Positions 1-11,309 are shown, counted from the stretch's first letter. The stretch: DNA of 11,309 nucleotides from Candidatus Magasanikiibacteriota bacterium (GCA_026396515.1 JAPLWQ010000002.1:317575-328883), one strand, 5' to 3'. Notes: generated from the sequence alone by a model not told the origin. Made by a program: numbers and translations.

Positions 1-13
1 AATGCCATTTTTG

Positions 14-22
14 TGCTATACT
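14..22 (+). promoter_or_regulatory. Putative extended -10 element (TGcTATACT) upstream of the lipoprotein gene
   Basis: tgctatact at 14-22 matches the TGnTATAAT-type extended -10. It lies in the AT-rich leader about 100 nt upstream of the ATG at 123. No clear -35 was identified. Confidence 0.3.
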
Positions 23-122
23 ATTCAGTTAAGTTCATTGAAAAAGCACTTAGATTAGCGAAAAAAAAGAATAACGGCAAAAACCGGTGCGAATGCGGTA
101 AAACCCGCAAAAGGGAGAAAAA

Positions 123-1640
123 ATGAAGAAGATCATCGGGGTCTTGGCACTGTGTCTGCTCGGAACGATTGCGTGCTCCAATGGCGACATGGCGTCCGAC
201 GATACGGACGACACCGACACCATGGAGTGCGACGACGACACCGGCAGCGATGCGGACGCGGATAGCGACAGCGACTCCGACTCCGACGCGGACAGTGACG
301 GCGATGCGGATACCGGCAGCGAGACCGATACCGGCTCGGAAACGAGCACGGATTCGGACAGTGGCTCGGAGACCGATACGGATTCGGCGTCTGACACAGG
401 GTCGGACAGTGAAACCGGAACCGAAGCTGACGCGGGAACGGACACCGGCAGTGAGACCGACACAGGGTCGGAGACTGACACGGGTTCGGACACCGACAGC
501 GAAACCGACTTCACGCTCCCGTATACCGGCTGGTTCGCCGAGGGCGGGTCGGGCGCGCACGCGAGTGCCAGCCCGGTCTACATTCATACCGGGTTTTACG
601 ATAGTGGTACGATCGACCTCGGCCTTCACTTCTGGTATACCCCGATCGTGGACGTTGATGGCAACATCTACGTTGCTGTTGATACCGGTGCGACGAACGC
701 TAAGATCGTGTCGTATACGGAGAGTGGTGATTACCGGTGGGAGTTCGAATACCCGGCGTACTATGGTTGCCCGCGCGAGCCAGTGATGGACGACGCCGGT
801 CACCTGTACGTTTCGGGCGCTCTTACCAACACGGTGTACTCCGTGAACACGGCAACGGGCGAAGCGGTCTGGTCTTACCAGAGCGACGTTGTCATGATTG
901 TCGAAGAGATGGTTCCGGTAGCGAATGGCGGTGTCGTGATCCGCGATATGAGTAGCGTGGAAGCAATCAACGAGGACGGCGAACAGGCTTGGGCGATCGA
1001 TTCGCTCGGGATGTCCCCGCAGTTCATGACCACGGATGCTGATGGCACGCTGTATCTGTCAATCGGCAGCGGCACGCTTCTGCAAATCGTGAATGGCGAA
1101 ATCATTTGGTTGTTCGCAATGCAGGTTCAGACACGGCCCGCGCTGAAAGACGGCATACTGTATGTGGTGGACATGGTCGCGAGCGACCCCGACCTCAACT
1201 CGGCCACCTACGCGATTCACGCTATCGATATTAACGAAGAGTCCATCGCTTGGACTTCATCCGAGATGGTGATGGCCGCGAACAGCGCCAAGCCGAGCGG
1301 CGTGTCGGTGGCTAACAACCTGGTGTACTTCGGTGTCGAGAATAAAATCAAGATGCTGTCCCAGGCGACCGGCATCGAGGTCGGCGAATACGTCTTCGGC
1401 GAGGTGGATGGATACAGCTTTGCTCCGCCGGTCGTTGATCCGGACGGTGTGGTGGTTGCCGCAAGAGGCAACAAGCTGTACATGCGTTACCTTGGCTCGT
1501 GGGATATAGTTTTCACGCCGAGCGTGGACATCCCCGACAACACCACCACGACTGCTGTTCTACCGACGCCGATCGCTGTGAGGAAAAACGGCGGTTTGCT
1601 CGTCGGGAGCAAATCGGGCAGGCTGTACTTCTTCAACTAG
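123..1640 (+). CDS. Secreted/lipoprotein-type protein: signal peptide with a lipobox-like TIAC, acidic D/S/T/G/E low-complexity linker, C-terminal PQQ-like (BamB/YfgL-like) beta-propeller repeats
   Basis: 505-aa ORF with a GGGAG SD 7 nt upstream of the ATG. The N-terminus MKKIIGVLALCLLGTIAC is a signal peptide with a Cys. About 100 aa of DSDSD/GSETDT repeats follow. After that come repeated motifs (GNIYVAVDTGA..., GHLYVSGAL..VYSVNTATGEAVWSY, DGTLYLSIGSG, DGILYVVD, NLVYFGVENK...ATG.EV, GVVVAARGNKLY) typical of PQQ-enzyme-like beta-propeller blades. The GC-rich codon usage is uniform along the ORF. Confidence 0.75.
   Translation: MKKIIGVLALCLLGTIACSNGDMASDDTDDTDTMECDDDTGSDADADSDSDSDSDADSDGDADTGSETDTGSETSTDSDSGSETDTDSASDTGSDSETGTEADAGTDTGSETDTGSETDTGSDTDSETDFTLPYTGWFAEGGSGAHASASPVYIHTGFYDSGTIDLGLHFWYTPIVDVDGNIYVAVDTGATNAKIVSYTESGDYRWEFEYPAYYGCPREPVMDDAGHLYVSGALTNTVYSVNTATGEAVWSYQSDVVMIVEEMVPVANGGVVIRDMSSVEAINEDGEQAWAIDSLGMSPQFMTTDADGTLYLSIGSGTLLQIVNGEIIWLFAMQVQTRPALKDGILYVVDMVASDPDLNSATYAIHAIDINEESIAWTSSEMVMAANSAKPSGVSVANNLVYFGVENKIKMLSQATGIEVGEYVFGEVDGYSFAPPVVDPDGVVVAARGNKLYMRYLGSWDIVFTPSVDIPDNTTTTAVLPTPIAVRKNGGLLVGSKSGRLYFFN
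195..512 (+). repeat. Imperfect in-frame tandem repeats (about 18-nt units such as accggcagcgagaccgat) encoding a D/S/T/G/E-rich linker (GSETDT, DSDSDS units)
   Basis: Repeated accggc(a/t)cgga(g/a)ac(c/g)ga(t/c)a-type units and gacagcgactccgac runs are visible directly in 195-512. The translation is almost entirely D, S, T, G, E and A. Confidence 0.7.
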
Positions 1641-1673
1641 CCGCTCTTTAATCCACTGGAGTTCCTTCCTTTA

Positions 1674-1697
1674 GCCCTGACTTTCTACAGTCGGGGC
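1674..1697 (+). other. GC-rich hairpin (gccctgact-ttctac-agtcggggc, 9-bp stem with one G.U wobble) just downstream of the lipoprotein stop
   Basis: An inverted repeat is visible in the sequence. It is not followed by a T-tract, so it may be a structural element at the edge of the GC-rich block rather than the terminator. Confidence 0.35.
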
Positions 1698-1708
1698 ACA
1701 TCTAAAAG

Positions 1709-1732
1709 ACACCACTTTACGTGGTGTTTTTT
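1709..1732. terminator. Bidirectional Rho-independent terminator between convergent genes (acaccac-tttac-gtggtgt followed by tttttt)
   Basis: A perfect 7-bp stem at 1709-1715/1721-1727 with a 5-nt loop and a T6 run at 1727-1732. On the minus strand the same hairpin follows the stop of the MGMT-like gene (1731-1733) and is followed by cttttag. Confidence 0.65.
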
Positions 1733-2003
1733 AGTATGATTTTTTAATAATATTTTTTATCCCTTCGTTTTTAAGCTTTGTAATTTTTAATTTTATCCCA
1801 CGGTTGTAGTCGCCGATTTTTCCGTCCGAGCGGGCGACGCGGTGGCAGGGGATCTTCGGGTCATAATTTTTATTTATAACTTTCCCTACTGCCCGCGCCG
1901 CCCTGGGCCGGCCGGATTTTCGTGCTACTTCGCCATATGTTAAAACTTTTCCTTTGGAGATTTTAGCGACGACCGATTTAACTTTTTGGGTGAAAGTTAG
2001 CAT
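1731..2003 (-). CDS. MGMT-family protein (methylated-DNA-protein-cysteine methyltransferase DNA-binding domain, Ogt C-terminal/Atl/YbaZ-like), active-site PCHRV present
   Basis: The 90-aa product contains LTYGEVA...GRP.AARAVG...N...IPCHRV, the MGMT C-terminal domain signature including the Cys acceptor motif PCHR. Its start overlaps the upstream gene stop as TAATG, indicating translational coupling. Confidence 0.8.
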   Translation of the reverse strand: MLTFTQKVKSVVAKISKGKVLTYGEVARKSGRPRAARAVGKVINKNYDPKIPCHRVARSDGKIGDYNRGIKLKITKLKNEGIKNIIKKSY

Positions 2004-2512
2004 TAAGAGAGCATATTATTTATAAACTCAATCTTTTTTGCATAATAATTCCTCGGGGACGTGCCATCATTTTGTATTTTTAATGTTTCATATTCTTTGA
2101 GAGCGTTTGGGTCATTCCTCAGTATTTTCTCAAATTTTATTGACCGTTTCCAATCAGAATGATTTTTATTTATCAAAAATATTTCAATTTTTATGTCATC
2201 AATATATTTAACAAAGCGTACACGCCTCAACGGGTAGACGCTACCCGGTTGGCCCAGATATTTAATGAGTTTGTCGAGGTAAACATTAAAATTTCTATTG
2301 GAGATGGGGATGTAGAGGTCTATCTCTCCTTGTCCGGCAATACCGAGTGCGGTTGAACCGCGAAGCGATATTCTTGTTTTACCCAAGACATTAATCAGGT
2401 CCTTTTTTATCATCTTAAATATTGTTTTGGTTTTCGGATTATAAGGCAGGACACTGATTATATTAGTGTCGCTTAAATGATTTACCCATTCTTGTTGTTC
2501 GGGTGTCAACAT
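2003..2512 (-). CDS. GrpB/UPF0157-like nucleotidyltransferase-fold protein
   Basis: The 169-aa product has IISVLPYNPKTKTIFKMIKKDLINVLGKTRISLRGSTALGIAGQGEIDLYI, which resembles the GrpB pattern (I.V..Y.P.W...F..E...L...LG.....HIGSTAVPG...IDI). This is the minimal NTase hG[GS]-x10-D motif, but the second acidic residue is replaced (DLY instead of DID). It is AT-rich with no SD. Confidence 0.5.
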   Translation of the reverse strand: MLTPEQQEWVNHLSDTNIISVLPYNPKTKTIFKMIKKDLINVLGKTRISLRGSTALGIAGQGEIDLYIPISNRNFNVYLDKLIKYLGQPGSVYPLRRVRFVKYIDDIKIEIFLINKNHSDWKRSIKFEKILRNDPNALKEYETLKIQNDGTSPRNYYAKKIEFINNMLS

Positions 2513-2534
2513 GTCGGGTATTCTATCAAGAAAA

Positions 2535-2590
2535 TGAAAAAAATAAAAAAGCCGCCGGCGGGAAACGCGGGCGGCGAGGCGGGGAGCGAT
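2535..2590 (-). terminator. Putative intrinsic terminator of the minus-strand GC-rich operon: GC-rich dyad (gccgccggcgg palindrome and flanking GC-rich repeats) followed by a T-rich run on the minus strand
   Basis: On the minus strand the GC-rich dyad cccgccggcggc is immediately followed by ttttttattttttt (plus-strand A-run 2535-2550). It lies right after the TGA stop (2597-2599) of the MIF-like gene. The exact stem could not be resolved by eye. Confidence 0.35.
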
Positions 2591-2596
2591 TGTCTC

Positions 2597-2962
2597 TCAG
2601 GTAGATACTTCCTTACTGAACGTAGAGAAGCCGATATCGTCGCGACTGACCGGGTGAACGAAACACTCGATCAGTGCGGTCTCGGGGAAGAATGCGCGGA
2701 CGGTGGTAACCAGGGCAGCGGCGAGAGCGTCCCGAACATCCGGCGTGCGATCCGGCTTCTTGAGGAGACTGTCGACGTAGATGATGATCTCTTCGCCCAG
2801 GCCGGCGGACATCATGTCACTCGGGAAAAAGCAGGAGACCTGGTCTGCGACCAACTCCAGCTCTTTGACCGCGGCGGTCGCTGCGCGCAGGTCATCGCAG
2901 AGTGCCTTGAGTTTCTTCTGGTTGGTCTTTCTCGGAATTCCGTAAACGATGATGACTGGCAT
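2597..2962 (-). CDS. Tautomerase-superfamily protein, MIF/D-dopachrome-tautomerase-like (Pro1 retained)
   Basis: The 121-aa product begins MPVIIVYGIPRK, close to MIF MPMFIVNTNVPR. A central VSCFFPSDMMSAGLGEE aligns with MIF IAVHVVPDQLMAFGGSSEP, and the length is MIF-like. There is a GGAG about 7 nt upstream and a TGATG overlap with the upstream gene. The sequence is GC-rich. Confidence 0.5.
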   Translation of the reverse strand: MPVIIVYGIPRKTNQKKLKALCDDLRAATAAVKELELVADQVSCFFPSDMMSAGLGEEIIIYVDSLLKKPDRTPDVRDALAAALVTTVRAFFPETALIECFVHPVSRDDIGFSTFSKEVST

Positions 2963-3318
2963 CAGACTGCTCCCACGATAGGACCGAGGTCGGGGTCGAC
3001 GGCGATTGCACCTTTCGGGACCTTGTCGCCGGCGCGGTAGAGGGCCGGACCGCCGATGCTGAGGACGCGGCCGTCGAGTTCGTGTTCCAGCTCCTCGATG
3101 GTTTTCAGGACCCGCTGGCGGCTGGCCTCGTTGCCGAGGTGCAGCACGTTAGCCCTGCCGCCGCTGTAGTGCCAGTCGACCTTCGCCTTGGCCTTTTCGG
3201 CCACGCGTCGCACCCAACGCTCCACGGCGTTGGAGCTTCCGTCGACGACGCAGACGCCTTTTCCTTTCTTGAAGATCGCGGGGTTGCACGGGGATGGGGT
3301 CGGTCCATCTGTTGCCAT
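2962..3318 (-). CDS. Hypothetical protein (118 aa), first gene of the GC-rich two-gene operon
   Basis: Strong SD AGGAGGTG 5 nt upstream of the ATG at 3318. It is translationally coupled to the MIF-like gene through a TGATG overlap. The motif GKGVCVVDGSSNAVERW is present, but no family could be assigned confidently from sequence alone. Confidence 0.6.
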   Translation of the reverse strand: MATDGPTPSPCNPAIFKKGKGVCVVDGSSNAVERWVRRVAEKAKAKVDWHYSGGRANVLHLGNEASRQRVLKTIEELEHELDGRVLSIGGPALYRAGDKVPKGAIAVDPDLGPIVGAV

Positions 3319-3358
3319 TGAAACACCTCCTGTGGGGTTTGTTCTAAGAACTAAACAA

Positions 3359-3387
3359 AAAATAGCACCAAAGTGCTATTTTGTCAA
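3359..3387 (-). promoter_or_regulatory. Sigma70-type promoter for the minus-strand GC-rich operon: -35 TTGACA (3382-3387), 17-nt spacer, extended -10 TGcTATTTT (3359-3367). A perfect 8-bp inverted repeat AATAGCAC-N4-GTGCTATT (3361-3380) lies in the spacer/-10 and is a putative operator.
   Basis: Read on the minus strand the region is ttgacaaaatagcactttggtgctatttt. The hexamers and spacing are directly visible. The palindrome overlapping the -10 is the classic geometry of a repressor operator. Confidence 0.5.
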
Positions 3388-3418
3388 CCCGGTAGAATGC
3401 ATAGGGGCCTCTACCGGG
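3388..3418. other. GC-rich hairpin (cccggtaga-N13-tctaccggg, 9-bp perfect stem) abutting the -35 at the boundary between GC-rich block 2 and AT-rich DNA
   Basis: A perfect inverted repeat is visible in the sequence. It has no adjacent T-tract on either strand. Its function is unknown; it could be a regulatory site or a recombination boundary. Confidence 0.35.
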
Positions 3419-3560
3419 CAGGCGCTCCCCATTAAGCACGTGTTTAGAACTTTAGATTGGGATAAGATAGCCATTGATTTGCGTATTTTTCAAGAAGATT
3501 GCCATTTTGCTTTAAAATGATAGGATGTAAATAAGGGTAAAACAGTCTTGATTGCCCTGA

Positions 3561-3575
3561 CTAAAAATGTAATGA
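3561..3575 (+). promoter_or_regulatory. Conserved 15-mer CTAAAAATGTAATGA (copy 1) upstream of the 408-aa hypothetical gene. It contains a start-stop-stop triplet ATG-TAA-TGA.
   Basis: An identical 15-mer recurs at 5274-5288 directly upstream of the 376-aa hypothetical gene. Confidence 0.4.
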
Positions 3576-3585
3576 CCAATTGAAT

Positions 3586-4824
3586 ATGAACGAAGAAGAA
3601 GATTTAGACAATCAAAATCTTAACTATTTCAATAACGATTACCTGTTTTTGATAATTCTGATTTTGTTAGAGAAATATCATACAGGCGAACGGGATGGCT
3701 ACGGCGTAAGTAGCGCTTTTACGCTGAATGAGTTTATAAAAGGCAACTTATCCAAATGTGAAGAAATTACAGGCGAAATTGAAGATACAAACGATTACAG
3801 TAGCCCAAACGAATACGTTTTAAGCCATATAATCAGAATAGGCGATGACTTAAATATAATAAAACTCCGACAAATAGGCGCTTTCAAAATGAGCGTAATG
3901 TTGGAACAGGTTGTTGAATACGCCATAAATAACGATAAAACATTCCCACCTGAAGCAGGATATTACTGCGCTGTAATTGACGAGATAATGAAATTGCAGA
4001 TTATCGAAAAAGAGCGAAATGAAAATCTTTTTAAGGCAAAGGAATACACCTTTGAAAAAACCAGAGAACCGATATTTTTTAACGATAACTACAGTAAGCA
4101 TATTGCCCTATTGCTTGATATAGTTCCTGAATATATATACTTACGAGCAACCTTTATTGACGAAGAAGTAAACACCATTGAAAAAGAAATAAAAACTTTT
4201 TTAGATGACTTTAGCAATGACCTACTTAAAGACTACCAGCCAGATTATGCCCTAACCAGTCGCTTATATTTTACCAAACAAATCGAGAATTTCTACGCCT
4301 ACCTAAACACGCTCCCACTTGTTGGAAATACCGTGAATATACCTTTTACCGTATTAGGCAATAAAGATTTTGAAGTAGTTAAAATCTTAAAATTTCTTGA
4401 GCTTAATAAGAGAATTAGAATAAACAAATGGAACGATGAAGCTTTTTGGAAAGTCGATTTTATAGATACCCCGATTACAATTGAAAGCCTTGTTAGCAAT
4501 ACAAAATCGCCCAGGCAGTCAAAGCCAAGAGTAAGCACAAAGTTCAAAGACGGCACGTTATATTTTGAAGATAAGCAATTTAACTTTAATAGAAAGCAAA
4601 TACAAAAAGACCTGCTTAATACCCTATTCAAAAAGCCTAAGTATAATTGGAGCAATGATGAGATATGGGAAGACTGGGGCGAGGAAGATTTTAAAAATAA
4701 GACATTAAAATTTTATACGGCCAGCGATGAGATAAATAAAATGATAGCCTTGGAAACTGGCGTTAGAGATTTTTTAATAAAAGGCACAAAACAAGTCCAA
4801 ATTAACCCTAAATATGTAAGTTAA
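3586..4824 (+). CDS. Hypothetical protein (about 408 aa) with no recognisable domain. The ORF track starts at a TTG at 3580; the first ATG is at 3586.
   Basis: Long uninterrupted AT-rich ORF with host-like codon usage and no SD, like all AT-rich genes here. Its N-terminal acidic stretch is followed by a hydrophobic LFLIILILLEKY segment. No ATPase, nuclease or MTase motifs were seen. Confidence 0.6.
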   Translation: MNEEEDLDNQNLNYFNNDYLFLIILILLEKYHTGERDGYGVSSAFTLNEFIKGNLSKCEEITGEIEDTNDYSSPNEYVLSHIIRIGDDLNIIKLRQIGAFKMSVMLEQVVEYAINNDKTFPPEAGYYCAVIDEIMKLQIIEKERNENLFKAKEYTFEKTREPIFFNDNYSKHIALLLDIVPEYIYLRATFIDEEVNTIEKEIKTFLDDFSNDLLKDYQPDYALTSRLYFTKQIENFYAYLNTLPLVGNTVNIPFTVLGNKDFEVVKILKFLELNKRIRINKWNDEAFWKVDFIDTPITIESLVSNTKSPRQSKPRVSTKFKDGTLYFEDKQFNFNRKQIQKDLLNTLFKKPKYNWSNDEIWEDWGEEDFKNKTLKFYTASDEINKMIALETGVRDFLIKGTKQVQINPKYVS

Positions 4825-4858
4825 AGTTAGGTAAAGTTAGATAAACACTTATTCTGTA

Positions 4859-4895
4859 AAATAACCTTATAACAAACTAAGGTTATTTTTTATTT
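4859..4895 (+). terminator. Rho-independent terminator (aaataacctt - ataacaaact - aaggttattt followed by tttatttg)
   Basis: A perfect 10-bp inverted repeat at 4859-4868/4879-4888 with a 10-nt loop and a downstream T-run, located 35 nt after the stop at 4824. Confidence 0.6.
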
Positions 4896-5003
4896 GCAAT
4901 CAAAACGAACAACTGACTAATGAGCAACTCGAAGCCAAGCATAATCTGACTGGCTTTTTTAAGTTGCTCTTGGAAATTGATATGCGAAATAACCCACATC
5001 TTT

Positions 5004-5264
5004 ATGAAGATAACGGAAGTCCAGATAATACCGATTAAGGCCAATAACGGCTTAATAGCCTTTGGGAGCGTATTGTTTGACGATTGCCTATTCTTAGGCT
5101 CAATCGGCATACACAAAAAGCTCGATGGGAGCGGTTATCGAATAACCTACCCTACAAAGAAAATCGGCGAAAAAGATATAAATATCTTTCATCCAATAAA
5201 TAAAGAAGTAAGTAAGCTCATTGAAGATGAGATTATAAAAAAAGTGAACAGGCTGTTTGCCTAA
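5004..5264 (+). CDS. spoVG: SpoVG-family nucleic-acid-binding protein
   Basis: MKITEVQIIPIKANNGLIAFGSVLFDDCLFLGSIGIHKKLDGSGYRITYPTKKIGEKDINIFHPINKEVSKLIEDEIIKKV aligns along its length with the SpoVG consensus (..V.DVRL..V..EG.MKAIASITLDD.FVVHDIRVI.G.NGLFVAMPSKR...GEFRDIAHPIN.E.R..I..AV). The ORF track begins at a TTG at 4977, but the in-frame ATG at 5004 gives the canonical SpoVG N-terminus. Confidence 0.7.
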   Translation: MKITEVQIIPIKANNGLIAFGSVLFDDCLFLGSIGIHKKLDGSGYRITYPTKKIGEKDINIFHPINKEVSKLIEDEIIKKVNRLFA

Positions 5265-5273
5265 AAATCACTT

Positions 5274-5288
5274 TCTAAAAATGTAATG
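5274..5288 (+). promoter_or_regulatory. Conserved 15-mer CTAAAAATGTAATGA (copy 2), 2 nt upstream of the ATG of the 376-aa gene. It is preceded by a partial copy, ctaaaaatcac, at 5261.
   Basis: Exact repeat of 3561-3575. Confidence 0.4.
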
Positions 5289-5290
5289 AA

Positions 5291-6421
5291 ATGTTGGATA
5301 CTGTAATACTACAAGTTGATTATAATAAATTTTATATTCAGAAATATGAAAATTTTGGCGCAAGCAAAGAACAGATTTTAAGTTCAAAAAGTCCTTTCAA
5401 AAAATGGATAAATAACCCAAGCAAGAAAGATGAAATTTATAAGCCAAGACTAACACTAATAAAACGAGGTATTCGTTTTGTTCTAAAGATAGAATTTTCA
5501 GCTCCCAAGTTAATTTTTGGGAATAACATTGATGAGCTTGATGATGGCGATTTTGATTTAGTCATTAAAACACTAAGAGAAAGACTGCAATCAATGGGAG
5601 TATTGATATTTAGTGCTAACCTCGAAAATTCAGAAGTTATATCATTTCATCCATCGAAAAACATACCACTCAGCAAAGGATATACTGCTAATCTCGCAAT
5701 TAAAGAACTTAATAAAATAGACTGTAGCAAGCGCTTTGATTTTGACGAAAAGAACTACAGAAATAACGGCGAAGTCCTGCAATTTTACACTCGCTCCCAT
5801 TCTTTCGTTATTTACGATAAAATAAATGACTTAGTAAAACCACAAAAAAGGGCTACTGATAAAGACCAGACTAAACAGCAATTATCTATATTTGACTACA
5901 TAAAAACAAACGAACAGGCACTCCAGATATTAAGATTGGAGATTAGGCTAAGTTTAAAGCAAAAGCTCAACAATGTAATGGACTTTTTGGAGCAAAAAAC
6001 AAACCCTACGTTTAAAGATATTTTTAGCAAAAAACTATGTAAAAAAATCGTCAATTCTTACTGGGATAATTTCTTTGGCAATAACCTTTTCATCTTTAAT
6101 ACTAATAGTAGTCCACAATATATCTTACAGCTTATTTTTATGAAATATCCAAAAACTAAAATTCTACAGGCAATAAAAGCGGTTGGGCTTTATATGTTAT
6201 GCAAAGACAATGACGGCATTAAGGGGTTTAGACAAATCATTGATAGCCACAGGCGCAATCGAGCTGATTGGCAAACAGTAAAAGAAAATTTAAAACAGTT
6301 TGAAGACGAGATTTTTACAAGCTCAACCTGGGGATTTATAAAAGATATACGCCGAGAATTAAGGGATTTTAAGCCTTACCGACTAACCAAGACTGAAAAC
6401 TTGATATGTAAAGAAAAGTAA
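5291..6421 (+). CDS. Hypothetical protein (376 aa), tentatively resembling a Rep_trans-type rolling-circle replication initiator or relaxase
   Basis: A long AT-rich ORF. The segment HSFVIYDK followed about 45 aa later by LRLEIRL is reminiscent of the YdK ... R.E.r region I recall from Rep_trans (pT181 Rep, NicK/Orf20-like) proteins. This recollection is unverified, and the N-terminal R.D.A.D-type motif was not found. The gene sits with an Xis-like and a recombinase gene, which would suit a mobile element. Confidence 0.55.
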   Translation: MLDTVILQVDYNKFYIQKYENFGASKEQILSSKSPFKKWINNPSKKDEIYKPRLTLIKRGIRFVLKIEFSAPKLIFGNNIDELDDGDFDLVIKTLRERLQSMGVLIFSANLENSEVISFHPSKNIPLSKGYTANLAIKELNKIDCSKRFDFDEKNYRNNGEVLQFYTRSHSFVIYDKINDLVKPQKRATDKDQTKQQLSIFDYIKTNEQALQILRLEIRLSLKQKLNNVMDFLEQKTNPTFKDIFSKKLCKKIVNSYWDNFFGNNLFIFNTNSSPQYILQLIFMKYPKTKILQAIKAVGLYMLCKDNDGIKGFRQIIDSHRRNRADWQTVKENLKQFEDEIFTSSTWGFIKDIRRELRDFKPYRLTKTENLICKEK

Positions 6422-6435
6422 AGTATAATATCAAT

Positions 6436-6528
6436 ATGAAAATCAAAAATGAGGATAACCTAAAATTCCACATTGAAAGCAATGATTACTTCGGCACTTT
6501 GGCTACAGTGTTAAGCCTACAAGAATAA
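6436..6528 (+). CDS. Possible small ORF (30 aa, MKIKNEDNLKFHIESNDYFGTLATVLSLQE) in the intergenic region upstream of the HTH gene
   Basis: An ATG-initiated frame read directly from the sequence. It has no RBS and no homology evidence, and could be non-coding. Confidence 0.15.
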   Translation: MKIKNEDNLKFHIESNDYFGTLATVLSLQE

Positions 6529-6629
6529 AACTTATCAGAGTATAAGAAATTTAAAGTATCTGAAATACTAAAAAGCAAAATTGACGAGCTTATGTATCTA
6601 CAAAAAAACTATAAGATAATCAAAAAATT

Positions 6630-6812
6630 ATGAGCGAAGATAAAAAACAATTTTACACCGCCCAAGAATTAGCCGAACTACTTGGTTTTAATATAATGAC
6701 TATTTACCGATATATTAAGTCTGGTAAGTTGAAAGCCTATAAATTTGGTAAAGATTTTCGGATTGATAATGCCGAATTTCAATCTTTCTTAAAAAAAGTA
6801 AGAACAAAATAA
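6630..6812 (+). CDS. Excisionase-family helix-turn-helix DNA-binding protein (HTH_17/Xis/MerR-like), 60 aa
   Basis: FYTAQELAELLGFNIMTIYRYIKSGKLKAYKFGKDFRIDNAEFQSFL matches the excisionase-family HTH pattern (lt..EaAelLgvs..tvyrli..G.lpa.k.G...ri...dl..fl). Its stop lies 2 nt before the mod ATG. Confidence 0.7.
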   Translation: MSEDKKQFYTAQELAELLGFNIMTIYRYIKSGKLKAYKFGKDFRIDNAEFQSFLKKVRTK

Positions 6813-6814
6813 CT

Positions 6815-8590
6815 ATGCAAAACACTAAACGCAAACCAGAGGAAAATGAAAAAGAACAATTAAAAAATGAAATTTCTCGTTTGAAAAAGAAAATGGAAAA
6901 ATACGAAGCGATAGAATTAAAGCAAAACCGCTTTGGTTTAGTTTGGTTAGATGTTCCAGAAGCCTTTGAAGATGATGTTGAAAACAAATTACCAATTTTA
7001 GAAAAGGTATCAAAACTATCAATCAATAGCAAAGATAAAGAACCAACACACTTACTAATCGAGGGTGATAATTATCACGTTTTAACTTGCTTAAACTACA
7101 CTCACAAAGGAAAAGTTGATGTTATTTATATTGACCCACCATACAACACGGGAACTGATGGATTTAAATATAAAGATAAAAGAATTTTAGCGGAATATCC
7201 AGATGGAACAGAAGTCCCAGCAGACCACCCATTACGACACAGCTATTGGCTTTCATTTATGAAAAAACGTCTTGAATTATCGAAAGACCTACTCACCGAG
7301 CAAGGCTCTATTTTTGTGAGCATTGATGAAAATGAAATAGCGCAATTAAAACTATTGATGGATGAGATTTTTCTACCAGAAAATTTTATAGCCAATATAA
7401 CAGTTCAAAGCAACCCAAGAGGAAAACAACAAATGAAAATAGCCACCACACACGAATATCTACTGGCATATGCCAAGAATATAAATAAGGTTCAAATAAA
7501 CAGCGAAGAATTATCTAATGCCCAAGTAAAAGATTACTCTAAATTAGACGGAAGTGGCCTAAACTACAGAGAAATGGGATTAAGAAAAAGAGGTGCGGCT
7601 TCAAGGAGAGTTGATGTTCCAAATTTATATTACCCAATTTACGTTAATCCGAAAACTGGCGAAGTCGCATTGAAAAAAAATACTATTTTTACAAAAGAGG
7701 CTTTACCAGTTTTAAGTAATGGCGAGGATGGTCGTTGGAGATGGGGTAAGAAAAAATTTGAGCTATTTCACGACAGACTATTTGGTCGCCTTGTAAACAA
7801 AGAAAGATGGGATATTTTTGAAAGAGATTATCTCGTAAAAGATGGCGAACAAAAAGGAATGAAAGCTAAATCTATTTGGGATGACAAGGAATTGAATTAT
7901 GAAAATGCAAAAAAAGAATTAAAAAATTTCTTTGACGGTAAAACAATCTTTGATTACCCAAAAACTGTATATCTAATAAAAAAGATTTGCAGGATTGCTT
8001 CAAATAAAAATTCTATTGTATTAGATTTTTTTGCTGGCTCAGGAACTACAGGCCAAGCTGTGTTAGAGTTGAATAAAGAAGATAAAGGTAATAGACAAGT
8101 ATTGTTAGCAACCAACAATGAAAATCGAATTATGACTGAAGTTTGTTATCCAAGAATAAAAAAAGTGATTAAAGGATATTACAATCACAAAAATGGATTA
8201 GGCAATTCAATTGAATACTTTAAAACTGCTTTTGTTGGTAAAAACAATATATTAAAAGCTACTGACTCAGATAAAATTGAATTAGCCCATAATGCTGGAG
8301 CGATGCTATCAATAGCAGAAAATACGCTAAATCTAATTGAGTCAAATAACTTCTGGCAAATCTTTGAAAATAACGAACAGTATCTTGCAATATATTTTAG
8401 AGAAGAATTTAATAAATTTGATGATTTCATAAAAAAAGTCAAACAGTTTAAAAGACCTACGATAGTTTATATTTTTAGTTGGGAGAAAGAATTTGATTTT
8501 AATGATTTTGAAGATGATAGAAATATAAAAGTTAAAACCATCCCTCAGCCAATCTTAGAAATTTATAAACAAATTTATAATCTTATTTAA
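6815..8590 (+). CDS. mod: Type III restriction-modification Mod subunit (N6/N4 amino-methyltransferase, beta class)
   Basis: Motif IV DVIYIDPPY at aa 102-110, preceded by LIEGDNYHVL. Motif I FFAGSGTTGQA is near aa 400 after a long target-recognition region. The DPPY-then-FxGxG order and the 591-aa size are typical of type III Mod. It is immediately followed by a helicase-nuclease gene. Confidence 0.8.
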   Translation: MQNTKRKPEENEKEQLKNEISRLKKKMEKYEAIELKQNRFGLVWLDVPEAFEDDVENKLPILEKVSKLSINSKDKEPTHLLIEGDNYHVLTCLNYTHKGKVDVIYIDPPYNTGTDGFKYKDKRILAEYPDGTEVPADHPLRHSYWLSFMKKRLELSKDLLTEQGSIFVSIDENEIAQLKLLMDEIFLPENFIANITVQSNPRGKQQMKIATTHEYLLAYAKNINKVQINSEELSNAQVKDYSKLDGSGLNYREMGLRKRGAASRRVDVPNLYYPIYVNPKTGEVALKKNTIFTKEALPVLSNGEDGRWRWGKKKFELFHDRLFGRLVNKERWDIFERDYLVKDGEQKGMKAKSIWDDKELNYENAKKELKNFFDGKTIFDYPKTVYLIKKICRIASNKNSIVLDFFAGSGTTGQAVLELNKEDKGNRQVLLATNNENRIMTEVCYPRIKKVIKGYYNHKNGLGNSIEYFKTAFVGKNNILKATDSDKIELAHNAGAMLSIAENTLNLIESNNFWQIFENNEQYLAIYFREEFNKFDDFIKKVKQFKRPTIVYIFSWEKEFDFNDFEDDRNIKVKTIPQPILEIYKQIYNLI

Positions 8591-8591
8591 T

Positions 8592-10967
8592 ATGCCGACA
8601 TTTAATCTTCTTCCTTTTCAAAAAACTGCAGTAAATGACTTAAATGAGGCTCTTCTGCATCTTTGGAAAAAACAAGAAAGACAATTACCACTGGTTTTTA
8701 AATCCCCTACTGGTAGCGGAAAAACCCTAACAATTGCTCATTTCGTAAAAAACTTAAATCATCTTCCACAATGGAATATCGATAAAGCTTTTATATGGAT
8801 TACTTTTAGTGATGATTTGGCGATGCAAAGTAAAGATAAATTCAATGAGTATTTTGAAAACAATTTAGAAAATGCTCTTTTGTCCGTAAGCGATATTAAC
8901 AGGGGTAAATTATATGAAAACGATATTTTATTTTTAAACTGGCAAAAAGTTGTGCAAGATAGCGCCGCTTCAAGAAAATTAAAAATACGCACACCTAAAG
9001 ATGAAAGGTTTAAAAAAGAAAAAGGTAGTTATTTTGAAGATGTAATAGCTGAAACAAAAAAAGATAACCGAGAAATTATCTTACTCGTTGACGAAGCACA
9101 CACTCATAAAGCCACAGAATTAGCACAAGAGGTAATTAACTTAATTGACCCTAAAATTATAGTGCATATTACTGCGACCCCAGATGACAAAGATATAGCC
9201 AAAGCCGCTACACTAAGCAGTTTTGTCCAAGTAGAAAGAGAAAAGGTTGTTGATGAGGGGTTAATTAAAGAAAAAATTTTAGTTCAAACAGAGGAAGATT
9301 TGTTAAAACATAAAAATAAAGACTTGGATGAAGTTTTACTGACTTTAGGTATGGATAAAAGACAGGAACTTGCAAAAGAACTAAAATCAATTGGAAAAGA
9401 TATAAATCCACTACTACTTATTCAGCTCCCAAATGACGACAAAGAACTTGTTGCTAAAGGAGATAAGACAAAAGAAGAAGTTGTTAGCCAATTTTTAGCC
9501 ACTAAGGGCGTAAAGGGTTCTCAAATAGCAAAATGGTTTGATGGAAAAAAAGAGAATTTAGATTATATAGCTGATAATGATAGCAAGGTTGATTATATGC
9601 TTTTCAAGCAAGCCGCTGGAACTGGTTGGGATTGTCCACGTGCAAGTGTTTTAGTAATGTTTAGAGAAATAAAAAAAGAAACTTTTTACACGCAAACAGT
9701 CGGAAGAATTTTAAGAATGCCTGAACCGCAGGTTAAAGAGGATTATAAAAATACCCCGAATTTAAGAACTGGGTATTTATACACCAACTACAAACGCAAT
9801 CAAGTCGAATTACCAGATTTAAATAAAAACGAAATTCCAAGTCAACACGCTTACATAAAGAAAGAAATAAAAAATGTTAAATTACAATCGGCCTATATTT
9901 CACGTATTGACTACGGCGATATTCCTGCCTCTTCAAAATTTCAAGATAGCTTTACAAAATCAATGAACTCCTATTTTGGCATAACTAAAACTGGCTCAAC
10001 GGCTGAGGAAAAATTAAAAAAAGCAGGAGTAGATTTAAATCACAAATTAACAAATAGCATTATCGCAAATGCTAAATTTGAAGATTTAGAACAAATGGCA
10101 TACGAATTTAAAAAAAGAGGTGTTGATATTGAGCTTGAAATGTCTATAAATGATGTTGAAAAAACATTTAATTACTTCTGCCTTACACTATTAAAAGAGC
10201 AAACCGAAGAACAAGCTAAATATACTAACGTCGCTCGTGCTTGGGGCGTATTTAAATCAGCAATAAGAGTTTGGTTTGGCTCTGTTTTGGGTAAGGATAG
10301 CGACTACTATTATCGAGTATTTGTTAAAGATATACAAAAGGGCGCAAGTAGTAAATTCAGACCAGCTATAACAAAAGCATTGATTGAATTTAAACCAATG
10401 GCCAAGGAAATTCTAAAAGAAAAGAAAGAAAAAGAAGAAGAAAAAGAAGCTCCAATTTTTACTATTTTAGAGCAATACGATTTTACCTCTGATTATGAAG
10501 AAGTTCCTCAAAGACTTTGCGCTCTGGATAAGTGTTTTATACTGAAAGATTACAGAGGAAAAGAAAATGAACTTAACTTTATCAAATATCTTGAAGCTAA
10601 AAAAGACAAGATTGATTGGTGGTTTAAAAATGGCAATCAAGGAAAAGACTATTTTGCCATAAAGTATTTCAATAGTATTGATAATAAAGAAGCGCTATTT
10701 TATCCAGATTTTATAATAAAATTTAAGAGTGGCAAGATTGGTATCTTTGACCCCAAAAAAGACCAAACAGCCGAAGATGTTATCACGGCCAATAAAACTA
10801 AGGCTTTAGCTATCAAGCTAAAAGAGTTGGGCAAAAACTATGTAGGCGGTATAGTTGTATTTGAAAACGGAATTTGGAATTACAACGGCTCGGAAAAATA
10901 TAATTACCAAAAAGGAAAAATTAGCCAAGATAAAAATTGGCAACCAATGGAAAATTTATTTAAGTAA
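8592..10967 (+). CDS. res: Type III restriction enzyme Res subunit (SF2 helicase with C-terminal PD-(D/E)xK-like nuclease motif)
   Basis: Walker A SPTGSGKT (aa 38-45), DEAH box LLVDEAHTH (aa 165-172), ITATP, and motif VI QTVGRILR. The C-terminal segment ...FYPDFIIKFKSGKIGIFDPKK fits PD-x16-DxK. Its start is 1 nt after the mod stop. Confidence 0.75.
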   Translation: MPTFNLLPFQKTAVNDLNEALLHLWKKQERQLPLVFKSPTGSGKTLTIAHFVKNLNHLPQWNIDKAFIWITFSDDLAMQSKDKFNEYFENNLENALLSVSDINRGKLYENDILFLNWQKVVQDSAASRKLKIRTPKDERFKKEKGSYFEDVIAETKKDNREIILLVDEAHTHKATELAQEVINLIDPKIIVHITATPDDKDIAKAATLSSFVQVEREKVVDEGLIKEKILVQTEEDLLKHKNKDLDEVLLTLGMDKRQELAKELKSIGKDINPLLLIQLPNDDKELVAKGDKTKEEVVSQFLATKGVKGSQIAKWFDGKKENLDYIADNDSKVDYMLFKQAAGTGWDCPRASVLVMFREIKKETFYTQTVGRILRMPEPQVKEDYKNTPNLRTGYLYTNYKRNQVELPDLNKNEIPSQHAYIKKEIKNVKLQSAYISRIDYGDIPASSKFQDSFTKSMNSYFGITKTGSTAEEKLKKAGVDLNHKLTNSIIANAKFEDLEQMAYEFKKRGVDIELEMSINDVEKTFNYFCLTLLKEQTEEQAKYTNVARAWGVFKSAIRVWFGSVLGKDSDYYYRVFVKDIQKGASSKFRPAITKALIEFKPMAKEILKEKKEKEEEKEAPIFTILEQYDFTSDYEEVPQRLCALDKCFILKDYRGKENELNFIKYLEAKKDKIDWWFKNGNQGKDYFAIKYFNSIDNKEALFYPDFIIKFKSGKIGIFDPKKDQTAEDVITANKTKALAIKLKELGKNYVGGIVVFENGIWNYNGSEKYNYQKGKISQDKNWQPMENLFK

Positions 10968-10971
10968 AAAT

Positions 10972-11309
10972 ATGAAAGCGATAATCCTTGCGAGAGTATC
11001 AACCGAAGAACAAAAAGATGCGGGTAATTCTTTGCCAGCTCAGGTTGTTCGTATGGAAACATATTGCAAGCAAAGAAATTTTCAGGTTGCAAAAACGCTT
11101 AGCTTTGACGAAAGCGCTTATAAGACAAAACGAGATGACTTTGATAAAATCATTGATTACATAAAACAATCAAAAGAAAAAATTATCGTTTGCTTTGATA
11201 AGGTAGATAGATTTTCACGAAACGTTTTTGATAAGCGAGTTGCTTATTTATACGAGATGGCAATGAGCGATAAAATTGAATTACATTTTGCCTCAGACAA
11301 CCTTGTTAT
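10972..11309 (+). CDS. Serine recombinase (resolvase/invertase or large serine integrase), N-terminal catalytic domain only, truncated by the window end
   Basis: MKAIILARVSTEEQKDAGNSLPAQ... matches the serine recombinase catalytic signature (AIYARVST.eQ...g.Sl.aQ) including the nucleophilic Ser. The ORF is open to the end of the window. Confidence 0.75.
   Translation, partial: MKAIILARVSTEEQKDAGNSLPAQVVRMETYCKQRNFQVAKTLSFDESAYKTKRDDFDKIIDYIKQSKEKIIVCFDKVDRFSRNVFDKRVAYLYEMAMSDKIELHFASDNLV

Follow-up and report, generated by a model that had tools for sequence, protein, structure and literature searches.

We analyzed a stretch of 11,309 nt from Candidatus Magasanikiibacteriota bacterium (GCA_026396515.1 JAPLWQ010000002.1:317575-328883), referred to below as the window, in which two GC-rich blocks, with three genes led by Shine-Dalgarno (SD) sites, are embedded in AT-rich DNA. 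An earlier note on this sequence had described such a mosaic and proposed that the GC-rich genes were imported recently from a distant high-GC lineage, or else that the contig is a chimeric assembly. The mosaic itself is real. A windowed GC run gave 36.1% for positions 1-122, 58.5% for 123-1700 (block A), 37.4% for 1701-2539, 59.6% for 2540-3420 (block B) and 32.1% for 3429-11309, the last with a standard deviation of 2.8 points and a maximum of 37.7% among 300-nt windows. The best GC change points, at ~158, ~1645 and ~2550, lie near gene or cassette edges, and a fourth, at ~3258, is coarser (150-nt windows); GC content falls just beyond the start codon at 3318 of the first gene of block B.

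Block A contains a single gene (123-1640, plus strand; 58.8% GC, GC content at third codon positions (GC3) of 0.74) for a predicted lipoprotein of 505 amino acids (aa). Its promoter and 5' untranslated region (UTR) (1-122, plus strand) are AT-rich (36% GC), with an extended -10 element (TGc TATACT) at 14-22 and a -35 box TTGACA 1-6 nt left of the window; in the promoter scan this site (8427-8455 of the longer contig L002 described below) scored 11/12 matches with the TG. The protein has a signal peptide with a lipobox-like TIAC, an acidic D/S/T/G linker of ~110 aa and a PQQ-like β-propeller, for which the Pfam match is weak and below the cutoff. Its segment MKKIIGVLALCLLGTIAC|S fits a relaxed PROSITE-type lipobox by eye only; the relative P0133 has ...FVAGAC. 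The linker DNA (180-530) contains short tandem repeats, with an 18-nt unit at 453-498, and the linker gives spurious matches to staphylococcal serine-aspartate (SD-repeat) adhesin models. A GC-rich 9-bp hairpin in the 3' UTR (1674-1697, plus strand; -40.7 kcal/mol and z=-7.6 for the fold of 1641-1740) lies just 5' of a bidirectional intrinsic terminator (1702-1734, both strands; terminator scan and fold) that serves both the 505-aa gene and a converging gene of the MGMT type.

Block B is read from the minus strand and comprises two genes behind a sigma-70-type promoter (3359-3387; TTGACA, a 17-nt spacer, TATTTT and an extended -10 TG; 10/12 in the promoter scan). The first gene (2962-3318; 65% GC, GC3 0.80) encodes a ferredoxin-like 118-aa protein of a large, uncharacterized family (MATDGPTPxPC...VDWHYSGGRANVLHLGD), and the second (2597-2962) a 121-aa protein of the tautomerase superfamily with a conserved proline after Met1. 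The genes share a TGATG overlap, and the 121-aa gene appears to be translationally coupled to its partner. A GC-rich intrinsic terminator (2537-2575; GCCGCC..GGCGGC followed by a U-run, fold of 2513-2600) closes the cassette at the GC change point near 2550. The 121-aa chain shows a tautomerase-type β-α-β fold, duplicated in ~120 aa; it has no more than 11 sequence relatives among those retrieved, 12-14 aligned homologues almost invariably begin with MP (positions 1-2), no Pfam, NCBIfam or PHROG model matched at E<=0.01, and a PDB profile search returned nothing significant. A second GC-rich hairpin (3388-3418) abuts the -35 box of the 118-aa promoter, so both hairpins reported earlier at the block edges exist. 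A stem at 3359-3382 was considered as a terminator upstream of the 118-aa gene and rejected, as it sits in the spacer of the 10/12 promoter, which is conserved in the related contig L091. Rfam and tRNA scans of the window yielded no tRNA and a single Rfam match, far below threshold; the GC-rich blocks and hairpins are therefore not explained by known structured RNA.

Each of the three GC-rich genes has an SD site in register. The 505-aa gene has GGGAG at 113-117 (plus strand), 5 nt before the ATG at 123, with a predicted anti-SD duplex of -8.4 kcal/mol; the 121-aa gene has GGGAG at 2974-2970 (minus strand), 7 nt before the ATG at 2962 (-6.5 kcal/mol); and the 118-aa gene has AGGAGGTG at 3331-3324 (minus strand), 5 nt before the ATG at 3318 (-14.1 kcal/mol). 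All three had been recognized before and required small coordinate corrections. On the contig extended beyond the window, SD sites precede 3/3 GC-rich genes versus 0/23 other genes (Fisher exact p=3.8e-4), which confirms that they are confined to the former. The 23 SD-less genes comprise MGMT, GrpB, eight called genes of an integrative element (six of them complete in the window) and 13 backbone genes left of the window, one of which has a GGAG ~19 nt upstream, too distant to count as an SD site. The SD sites of the GC-rich genes are probably functional.

Synonymous codon usage sets these genes apart as well. Their GC3 of 0.74-0.80 compares with 0.48-0.50 expected for the same amino acids under backbone codon usage, with G-ending and C-ending codons both enriched, so the GC difference outlasts correction for coding constraints. 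Since this usage is far from that of the backbone, the GC-rich genes may plausibly be of foreign descent. Their promoters and 5' UTRs are AT-rich.

The host was identified from the flanking DNA. Exact-protein look-ups led to two Logan contigs of run SRR20698649, produced by a k=31 assembler other than the source assembler, probably from the same reads, i.e. an independent assembler and not independent data. One of them, SRR20698649_59604 (L002; L-numbers otherwise denote fetched contigs and loci of related genomes), is 100% identical to window positions 1-3428 and reaches 8.4 kb further left into DNA of ~44% GC; the other, SRR20698649_45931 (L003), is 100% identical to 3399-11309 and runs 1.16 kb beyond the right end, where it encodes a serine recombinase and finishes with a tRNA 3' end. 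The 8.4 kb on the left encode rplA, dCMP deaminase, a kinase, dUTPase, ThyA, DHFR and Tmk. The ribosomal protein L1 is up to 81% identical to proteins of Ca. Magasanikbacteria metagenome-assembled genomes (MAGs), and the order rplA, dCMP deaminase, dUTPase, ThyA, Tmk is kept in about 55 related loci. The host is Ca. Magasanikbacteria, of the Patescibacteria or candidate phyla radiation (CPR), and not Bacteroidetes-like as had been suggested; its backbone has ~44% GC and is SD-less. In L002 (1-8267) as in the ~55 related loci, rplA stands beside a cluster of dCMP deaminase, kinase, dUTPase, ThyA/ThyX, (DHFR) and Tmk, and the far side of rplA varies between genomes. A literature search for Magasanikbacteria in connection with horizontal gene transfer and GC content found nothing.

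The idea that the host does without SD sites was borne out, as none of the 13 backbone genes on the contig has one and related loci are at the background rate. By crude ORF calling (longest ORF, first ATG), 736 open reading frames (ORFs) were taken from 44 related loci; an SD-like motif preceded 3.9% of the 597 ORFs of backbone composition versus 5.6% in an internal control, whereas it preceded 36-47% of the ORFs whose GC content exceeded that of their locus by more than 10 points. A stricter motif preceded 2-7% of the ORFs with no GC excess over the backbone, 25% of those with an excess of +5 to +10 points and 36% of those beyond +10, against 1.2% in the control. SD rates were low across all 80 related CPR loci. 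According to a published survey (Tsurumaki et al. 2022, PMC9297842), no anti-SD motif could be detected in roughly half of Parcubacteria, most of them from the group without uL1. The present genome carries uL1. No 16S rRNA 3' end lay within the 90 fetched loci.

Related MAGs contain single-gene islands of 59-68% GC inside DNA of 37-49% GC, most with a clear SD site and many encoding lipoproteins (L008 3387-4610 and 11834-12790; L016 11407-12000 and 12890-13393; L041 1732-2274; L048 41-1180; L054 2513-3442; and, with a DTDS linker, L004 16297-17304). Predicted lipoproteins account for many of the few SD-led genes in related Magasanikbacteria, and these genes tend to be GC-richer than their genome; besides the L004, L008 and L016 islands just listed, such genes lie at L004 15258-16088 and L045 15046-16611, and some of the encoded lipoproteins have acidic D/T/S linkers like that of the 505-aa protein. 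Hence a broadly heterogeneous host with many such genes, which the earlier note had set against a foreign origin, is found at the level of the lineage. We read these genes as recurrent cassettes, not as evidence against foreign origin.

The 118-aa family displays this pattern most fully. It comprises 165 clusters at 60-88% identity, whose named members all belong to Magasanikbacteria, Minisyncoccia, Paceibacterota or Parcubacteria. These closest relatives occur in low- to mid-GC contexts, where the gene is likewise GC-rich and SD-led; at 80-88% identity the contexts are mostly of 34-45% GC, with one at 59% GC. Across 80 metagenome loci, the gene has a GC content of ~50-65% whatever that of its flanks (34-70%). 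In 28 distinct low-GC loci, an SD site precedes it in 27 cases, compared to 23/166 flanking ORFs, and its GC3 is 0.56 versus 0.41 for the flanks (Wilcoxon p=2e-6). In contexts of 55-70% GC the gene matches its flanks in GC content, and the copies there are only 41-60% identical. Relatives at 34-54% identity lie on huge-phage contigs. The persistence of an SD site and excess GC3 in dozens of low-GC genomes points either to continued horizontal circulation among CPR or to selection on these signals.

Neighborhoods of the 118-aa gene differ from genome to genome. TTGAC-N17-20-TAnnnT occurs within 160 nt upstream of it in 32/69 family loci, and it is paired with the 121-aa gene in only 3/80. A linkage to tRNA-Asn fixed across CPR was considered and rejected, as a tRNA lies within 400 nt upstream in only 6/69 loci, and these are six different tRNAs; the tRNA-Asn linkage is confined to the present genome, L091 and L088. 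Proteins of ~244 aa in many genomes (L105, L106, L111-L113, L116, L117, L119, L120, L125 and L136) combine the 118-aa domain with an additional, well-conserved C-terminal domain of ~130 aa that no library names (pattern ...VLDDP..AV..V.K.NCRNTLE.NADRV.HFK...VPFARGLA...).

Contigs of related genomes also show how long the cassettes may have been at this locus. L091, whose L1 is 83% identical to that of the present genome, contains tRNA-Asn, a tRNA remnant, the same promoter, a 118-aa gene (88% identity) and a 121-aa gene (58%), all within 1.5 kb of rplA; the cassettes of the window and of L091 have the TTGACAAAATAGCA... promoter in common. Compared with L091, the present genome shows a synonymous divergence (dS) of 0.49 in the 118-aa gene and 1.06 in the 121-aa gene, against 1.58 in rplA. 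The 118/121 pair is thus probably not a recent arrival. A tblastn search with the three GC-rich proteins against 80 rplA-centered related loci found no matches, so these genes are not fixed rplA neighbors across the lineage. For the 505-aa protein, an exhaustive search of 1.84 billion representatives found a single full-length relative, P0133, with 32% identity and the same architecture. (A word-indexed homology search with the propeller domain found no match, though the protein itself is on record.) P0133 is encoded on L171, a Magasanikbacteria-like contig, where its gene adjoins rplA and the same nucleotide cluster. The place and design of the 505-aa gene thus appear to be old in the lineage, as judged from these two contigs.

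The tRNA side of the locus is variable. In L088, tRNA-Asn lies directly upstream of the 118-aa homologue. In L091 (461-640), tRNA-Asn is followed by a second, degenerate tRNA-like copy and then, immediately ahead of the 118-aa promoter, by a third remnant that consists of a 3' end; these copies seem to have been left behind by repeated rounds of integration and excision at that tRNA. Variable defense islands lie upstream of the 118-aa gene in L084 and L085. These two stretches (L084 1-5106 and L085 1-5338) are near-identical Magasanikbacteria DNA differing only upstream of that gene, where one has a set of reverse transcriptase, PD-(D/E)XK and TIR genes and the other a DNA methylase and a HATPase_c_3 protein; this seems to be a swap of defense islands at one site.

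Between the two blocks lie two genes on the minus strand, a 90-aa MGMT-type methyltransferase domain with PCHRV (1731-2003; Pfam PF01035, 1e-25) and a 169-aa GrpB (2003-2512; PF04229, 8e-14), which overlap by ATG/TAA. Their segment (1731-2512) has 37% GC and no SD site, GC3 is 0.46 for MGMT and 0.38 for GrpB where backbone codon usage predicts 0.44 for both, and MGMT homologues occur near rplA in L017, L025 and L060; both genes fit the native backbone. A TAGAAT box ends 7 nt before the ATG of GrpB (2513-2535, minus strand), a hint that the transcript has a very short leader or none.

The AT-rich DNA right of 3428 had been taken for that of the host, but with 32% GC against a backbone of ~44% it is a separate integrative element. 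The element (3429-11309 in the window and on for another 1.16 kb, to 9075 of L003; plus strand) is ~9 kb long and SD-less. Within the window it encodes 412-aa and 376-aa proteins of unknown function, SpoVG, an HTH_17 excisionase-like protein and type III Mod and Res (Pfam, PHROGs, PADLOC); the 60-aa helix-turn-helix (HTH) protein matches excisionase PHROGs, and the 376-aa protein had no match in the phage collection. Just beyond the window follows a large serine recombinase of 494 aa (PF00239, PF07508, PF13408; PHROG 95 integrase, 3e-67), and L003 ends in GGTTCGAATCCTACCCCTGGAGCA (reverse complement), a tRNA 3' end. At the other end of the element, the boundary segment (3388-3428, minus strand) consists of the GC-rich hairpin and then GGAGC (3428-3424), which resembles a tRNA 3' end; these 5 nt are all that the two element ends have in common. 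Alignment shows that the hairpin segment of ~36 nt is missing at the same place in L091, where the degenerate tRNA remnants end ...CCTACCCCTGGAGCA and are followed, after 4 nt, by the TTGACAAAATAGCA promoter and the 118-aa gene. We suggest that insertion of the element separated the tRNA 3' end from the 118-aa promoter, with the boundary at 3428/3429. The element-free site would then read ...CCTACCCCTGGAGC joined to GCCTGCCCGGTAGAGG...; the tRNA-to-promoter arrangement without the element is seen in L091 and L088, and no empty-site contig was retrieved.

This element bears on the contiguity of the window. The junctions at 120, 1700 and 2540 lie inside one unbranched Logan contig, and L002 and L003 overlap by exactly 30 nt (k-1) at 3399-3428, i.e. 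at the element boundary, so the assembly graph branches at the fourth junction, which an insertion of the element would explain without a chimera. The branch is compatible with a population polymorphic for the insertion.

Based on these results, we propose that the GC-rich blocks are self-contained cassettes of ultimately foreign origin that have long been resident in, or have circulated within, CPR, and we assign this interpretation a probability of about 60%. The window is a genuine part of a Ca. Magasanikbacteria chromosome, in which three compositional layers meet. The first is the native backbone of ~44% GC without SD sites, including the rplA and nucleotide-metabolism cluster left of the window, MGMT and GrpB. 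The second consists of the two cassettes, each with an AT-rich sigma-70-type promoter, one SD site per gene, GC-rich coding sequences and its own terminator; block A would encode a surface lipoprotein with a β-propeller, and block B a translationally coupled pair. The third is the 32% GC integrative element, separate from the cassettes. Codon usage points to a GC-richer, SD-using source outside the mutational regime of this genome, and more distant relatives are found in genomes of 55-70% GC and in huge phages. The cassettes lie in variable DNA that has the rplA cluster on one side and a tRNA integration hot spot on the other, and they probably predate the split from the sister genomes. They are members of a group of GC-rich, SD-led accessory genes, many of them for lipoproteins, that recurs across Magasanikbacteria.

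Several observations weigh against this interpretation. No donor lineage was found for any of the three GC-rich genes among 5.8 billion and 1.84 billion proteins searched, so that composition alone speaks for foreign origin. The tetranucleotide check proposed earlier gave a divided answer: in z-scores against the backbone, block B was deviant (r=0.07, below the 0.12-0.40 of backbone pieces), whereas the 505-aa gene (r=0.32) was no more so than backbone pieces of the same size (0.31-0.40), the power of the test being low on segments of 0.7-1.5 kb. The dS of the 118-aa gene is three times below that of rplA, which may indicate a later transfer between the two lineages instead of shared ancestry. 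The gene for P0133 has GGGAG before its start codon and a GC3 of 0.51 that matches its backbone; given this native composition and the identity of only 32%, the copy in the window could be a later replacement instead of an ancestral allele that has not ameliorated. Its 5' region was tried as an ortholog of that of the 505-aa gene and rejected, since the two align in promoter consensus features alone, and the L171 gene is therefore called a positional homologue. Furthermore, 121-aa homologues in genomes of 33-35% GC (L172 5001-5354 and L174 5001-5345) are AT-rich (GC3 0.24-0.28), yet keep AAGGAGG, so that the SD site and GC-richness are separable and the SD site may be a selected native signal rather than a relic of the donor. 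Most neighbors of these homologues in L172 and L174 are without SD sites. Finally, the crude ORF calls behind the lineage-wide SD frequencies and the probably shared reads of the two assemblies also count on this side.

Some of these points lead to the main rival explanation, in which the GC-rich genes are a native special expression class: Magasanikbacteria and related Parcubacteria would have two tiers of initiation, with most genes SD-independent and a persistent accessory set kept by selection, through a retained working anti-SD, at strong SD sites and G/C-ending codons. The near-constant SD site of the 118-aa gene in low-GC loci (27/28) argues for it, as does an excess of GC3 that does not track flank GC3 (r=0.21, not significant), and the fully AT-rich 121-aa homologues that still have AAGGAGG fit it directly. 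So do the strong SD sites on 2-7% of ORFs of backbone composition compared to 1.2% in the control, the dS of 0.49 for the 118-aa gene, far below the 1.58 of rplA as expected under constrained synonymous sites, and the fact that GC-richness ends at the edges of the coding sequences while the promoters look host-type. On the other hand, rplA, native and presumably highly expressed, has a GC3 of 0.46, like the backbone, and no SD site, and high expression alone thus does not give the signature. The codon shifts GAA to GAG, AAA to AAG and CAA to CAG resemble a global GC shift and not classical translational selection; the occurrence of the 118-aa gene in unrelated neighborhoods and beside six different tRNAs is as expected of a mobile gene; its relatives in phages and high-GC genomes match their hosts in composition; and part of Parcubacteria lacks the anti-SD (PMC9297842). 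Taken together, this leaves selection on native genes an unlikely, if serious, explanation. Were it true, the 118-aa family, its tautomerase-fold partner and the surface lipoproteins would be a class of genes expressed under separate control in an episymbiont whose ribosome is reduced, and the 118-aa family would be a conserved CPR-wide, phage-borne factor of important function.

Recent acquisition from a distant high-GC, SD-using lineage, with the genes still unameliorated, was the explanation favored by the earlier note. It would account for GC3 values of 0.74-0.80 against 0.45 in the backbone, for SD sites typical of SD-using bacteria and for the integration hot spot next door; the 505-aa gene, with its best relative at 32% identity and a GC content unlike that of the positional homologue beside rplA in L171, might be a recent replacement of that gene. 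The remaining evidence runs contrary to it. The nearest relatives of the 118-aa protein come mostly from contexts of 34-45% GC, with all named members in CPR, and those from genomes of 55-70% GC are only 41-60% identical. The 118/121 pair stands with the same promoter beside rplA in L091, at a dS of 0.5-1.1. The AT-rich promoters and UTRs are host-like, no donor flanking DNA is left, and neither protein collection offered a donor. We thus regard a recent import as quite improbable, in contrast to the long residence proposed above.

A chimeric assembly, in which DNA of one high-GC and one low-GC organism would have been joined to that of a mid-GC CPR bacterium, might be suspected from three compositional classes within 11 kb and from the break of the k=31 assembly exactly at 3399-3428, but it is hardly credible. 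The Logan contig is 100% identical through 120, 1700 and 2540. The GC steps fall at start and stop codons and terminators, and the genes are intact, each with fitting promoters and terminators. L091, an unrelated contig from a metagenome, repeats the order tRNA, promoter, 118-aa, 121-aa, rplA, and the tRNA 3' end that abuts the same promoter there is carried by the far end of the AT-rich block, as an insertion would predict. Many MAGs assembled independently also contain GC-rich single-gene islands whose flanks are present on both sides.

Taken alone, the window is ordinary, being a variable part of a chromosome that carries accessory cassettes and a mobile element, and it cautions against equating the AT-rich bulk of a sequence with its host. 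Less ordinary is an essentially SD-less CPR lineage with a recurring minority of genes that have strong SD sites and excess synonymous GC, many of them for surface lipoproteins. If this pattern is due to ongoing gene flow, it informs how episymbionts with tiny genomes gain surface and accessory functions; if it is due to selection, it would point to two ways of starting translation in organisms whose ribosomes are reduced.

The closest known parallel to the cassettes is provided by horizontally acquired genomic islets or 'morons', frequently located by tRNA genes or at the ends of prophages, which likewise combine atypical GC content and codon usage in one or two genes with their own promoter and terminator; the variable region by a tRNA integration hot spot and a mobile element, and the patchy neighborhoods of the 118-aa gene, add to the likeness. 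Unlike in such islets, no donor was identified here, the cassettes would predate the split of the sister genomes and are not inside a recognizable prophage, and GC excess and SD sites persist across dozens of low-GC genomes with no decay. As to initiation, Bacteroidetes genes are reportedly mostly without SD sites, with the anti-SD retained, and a few, such as rpsU, are said to keep one. The host lineage resembles them in its A/T-rich upstream regions, its background SD frequency and a small minority of genes with strong SD sites, but it is a CPR lineage, and its SD minority is enriched in GC-rich accessory genes and lipoproteins, not in a ribosomal autoregulatory gene. The 121-aa protein differs from the known tautomerase superfamily (fused 4-OT, cis-CaaD, MIF) in that it matches no Pfam tautomerase or MIF model. 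The adjacent element, finally, is similar to serine-recombinase elements with restriction-modification cargo in its Resolvase/Recombinase/Zn-ribbon integrase at one end, its excisionase-like HTH protein, its type III Mod and Res and its tRNA 3' end flank; it differs from them in being flanked only by the 5-nt repeat GGAGC, with neither an unoccupied site nor excision observed.

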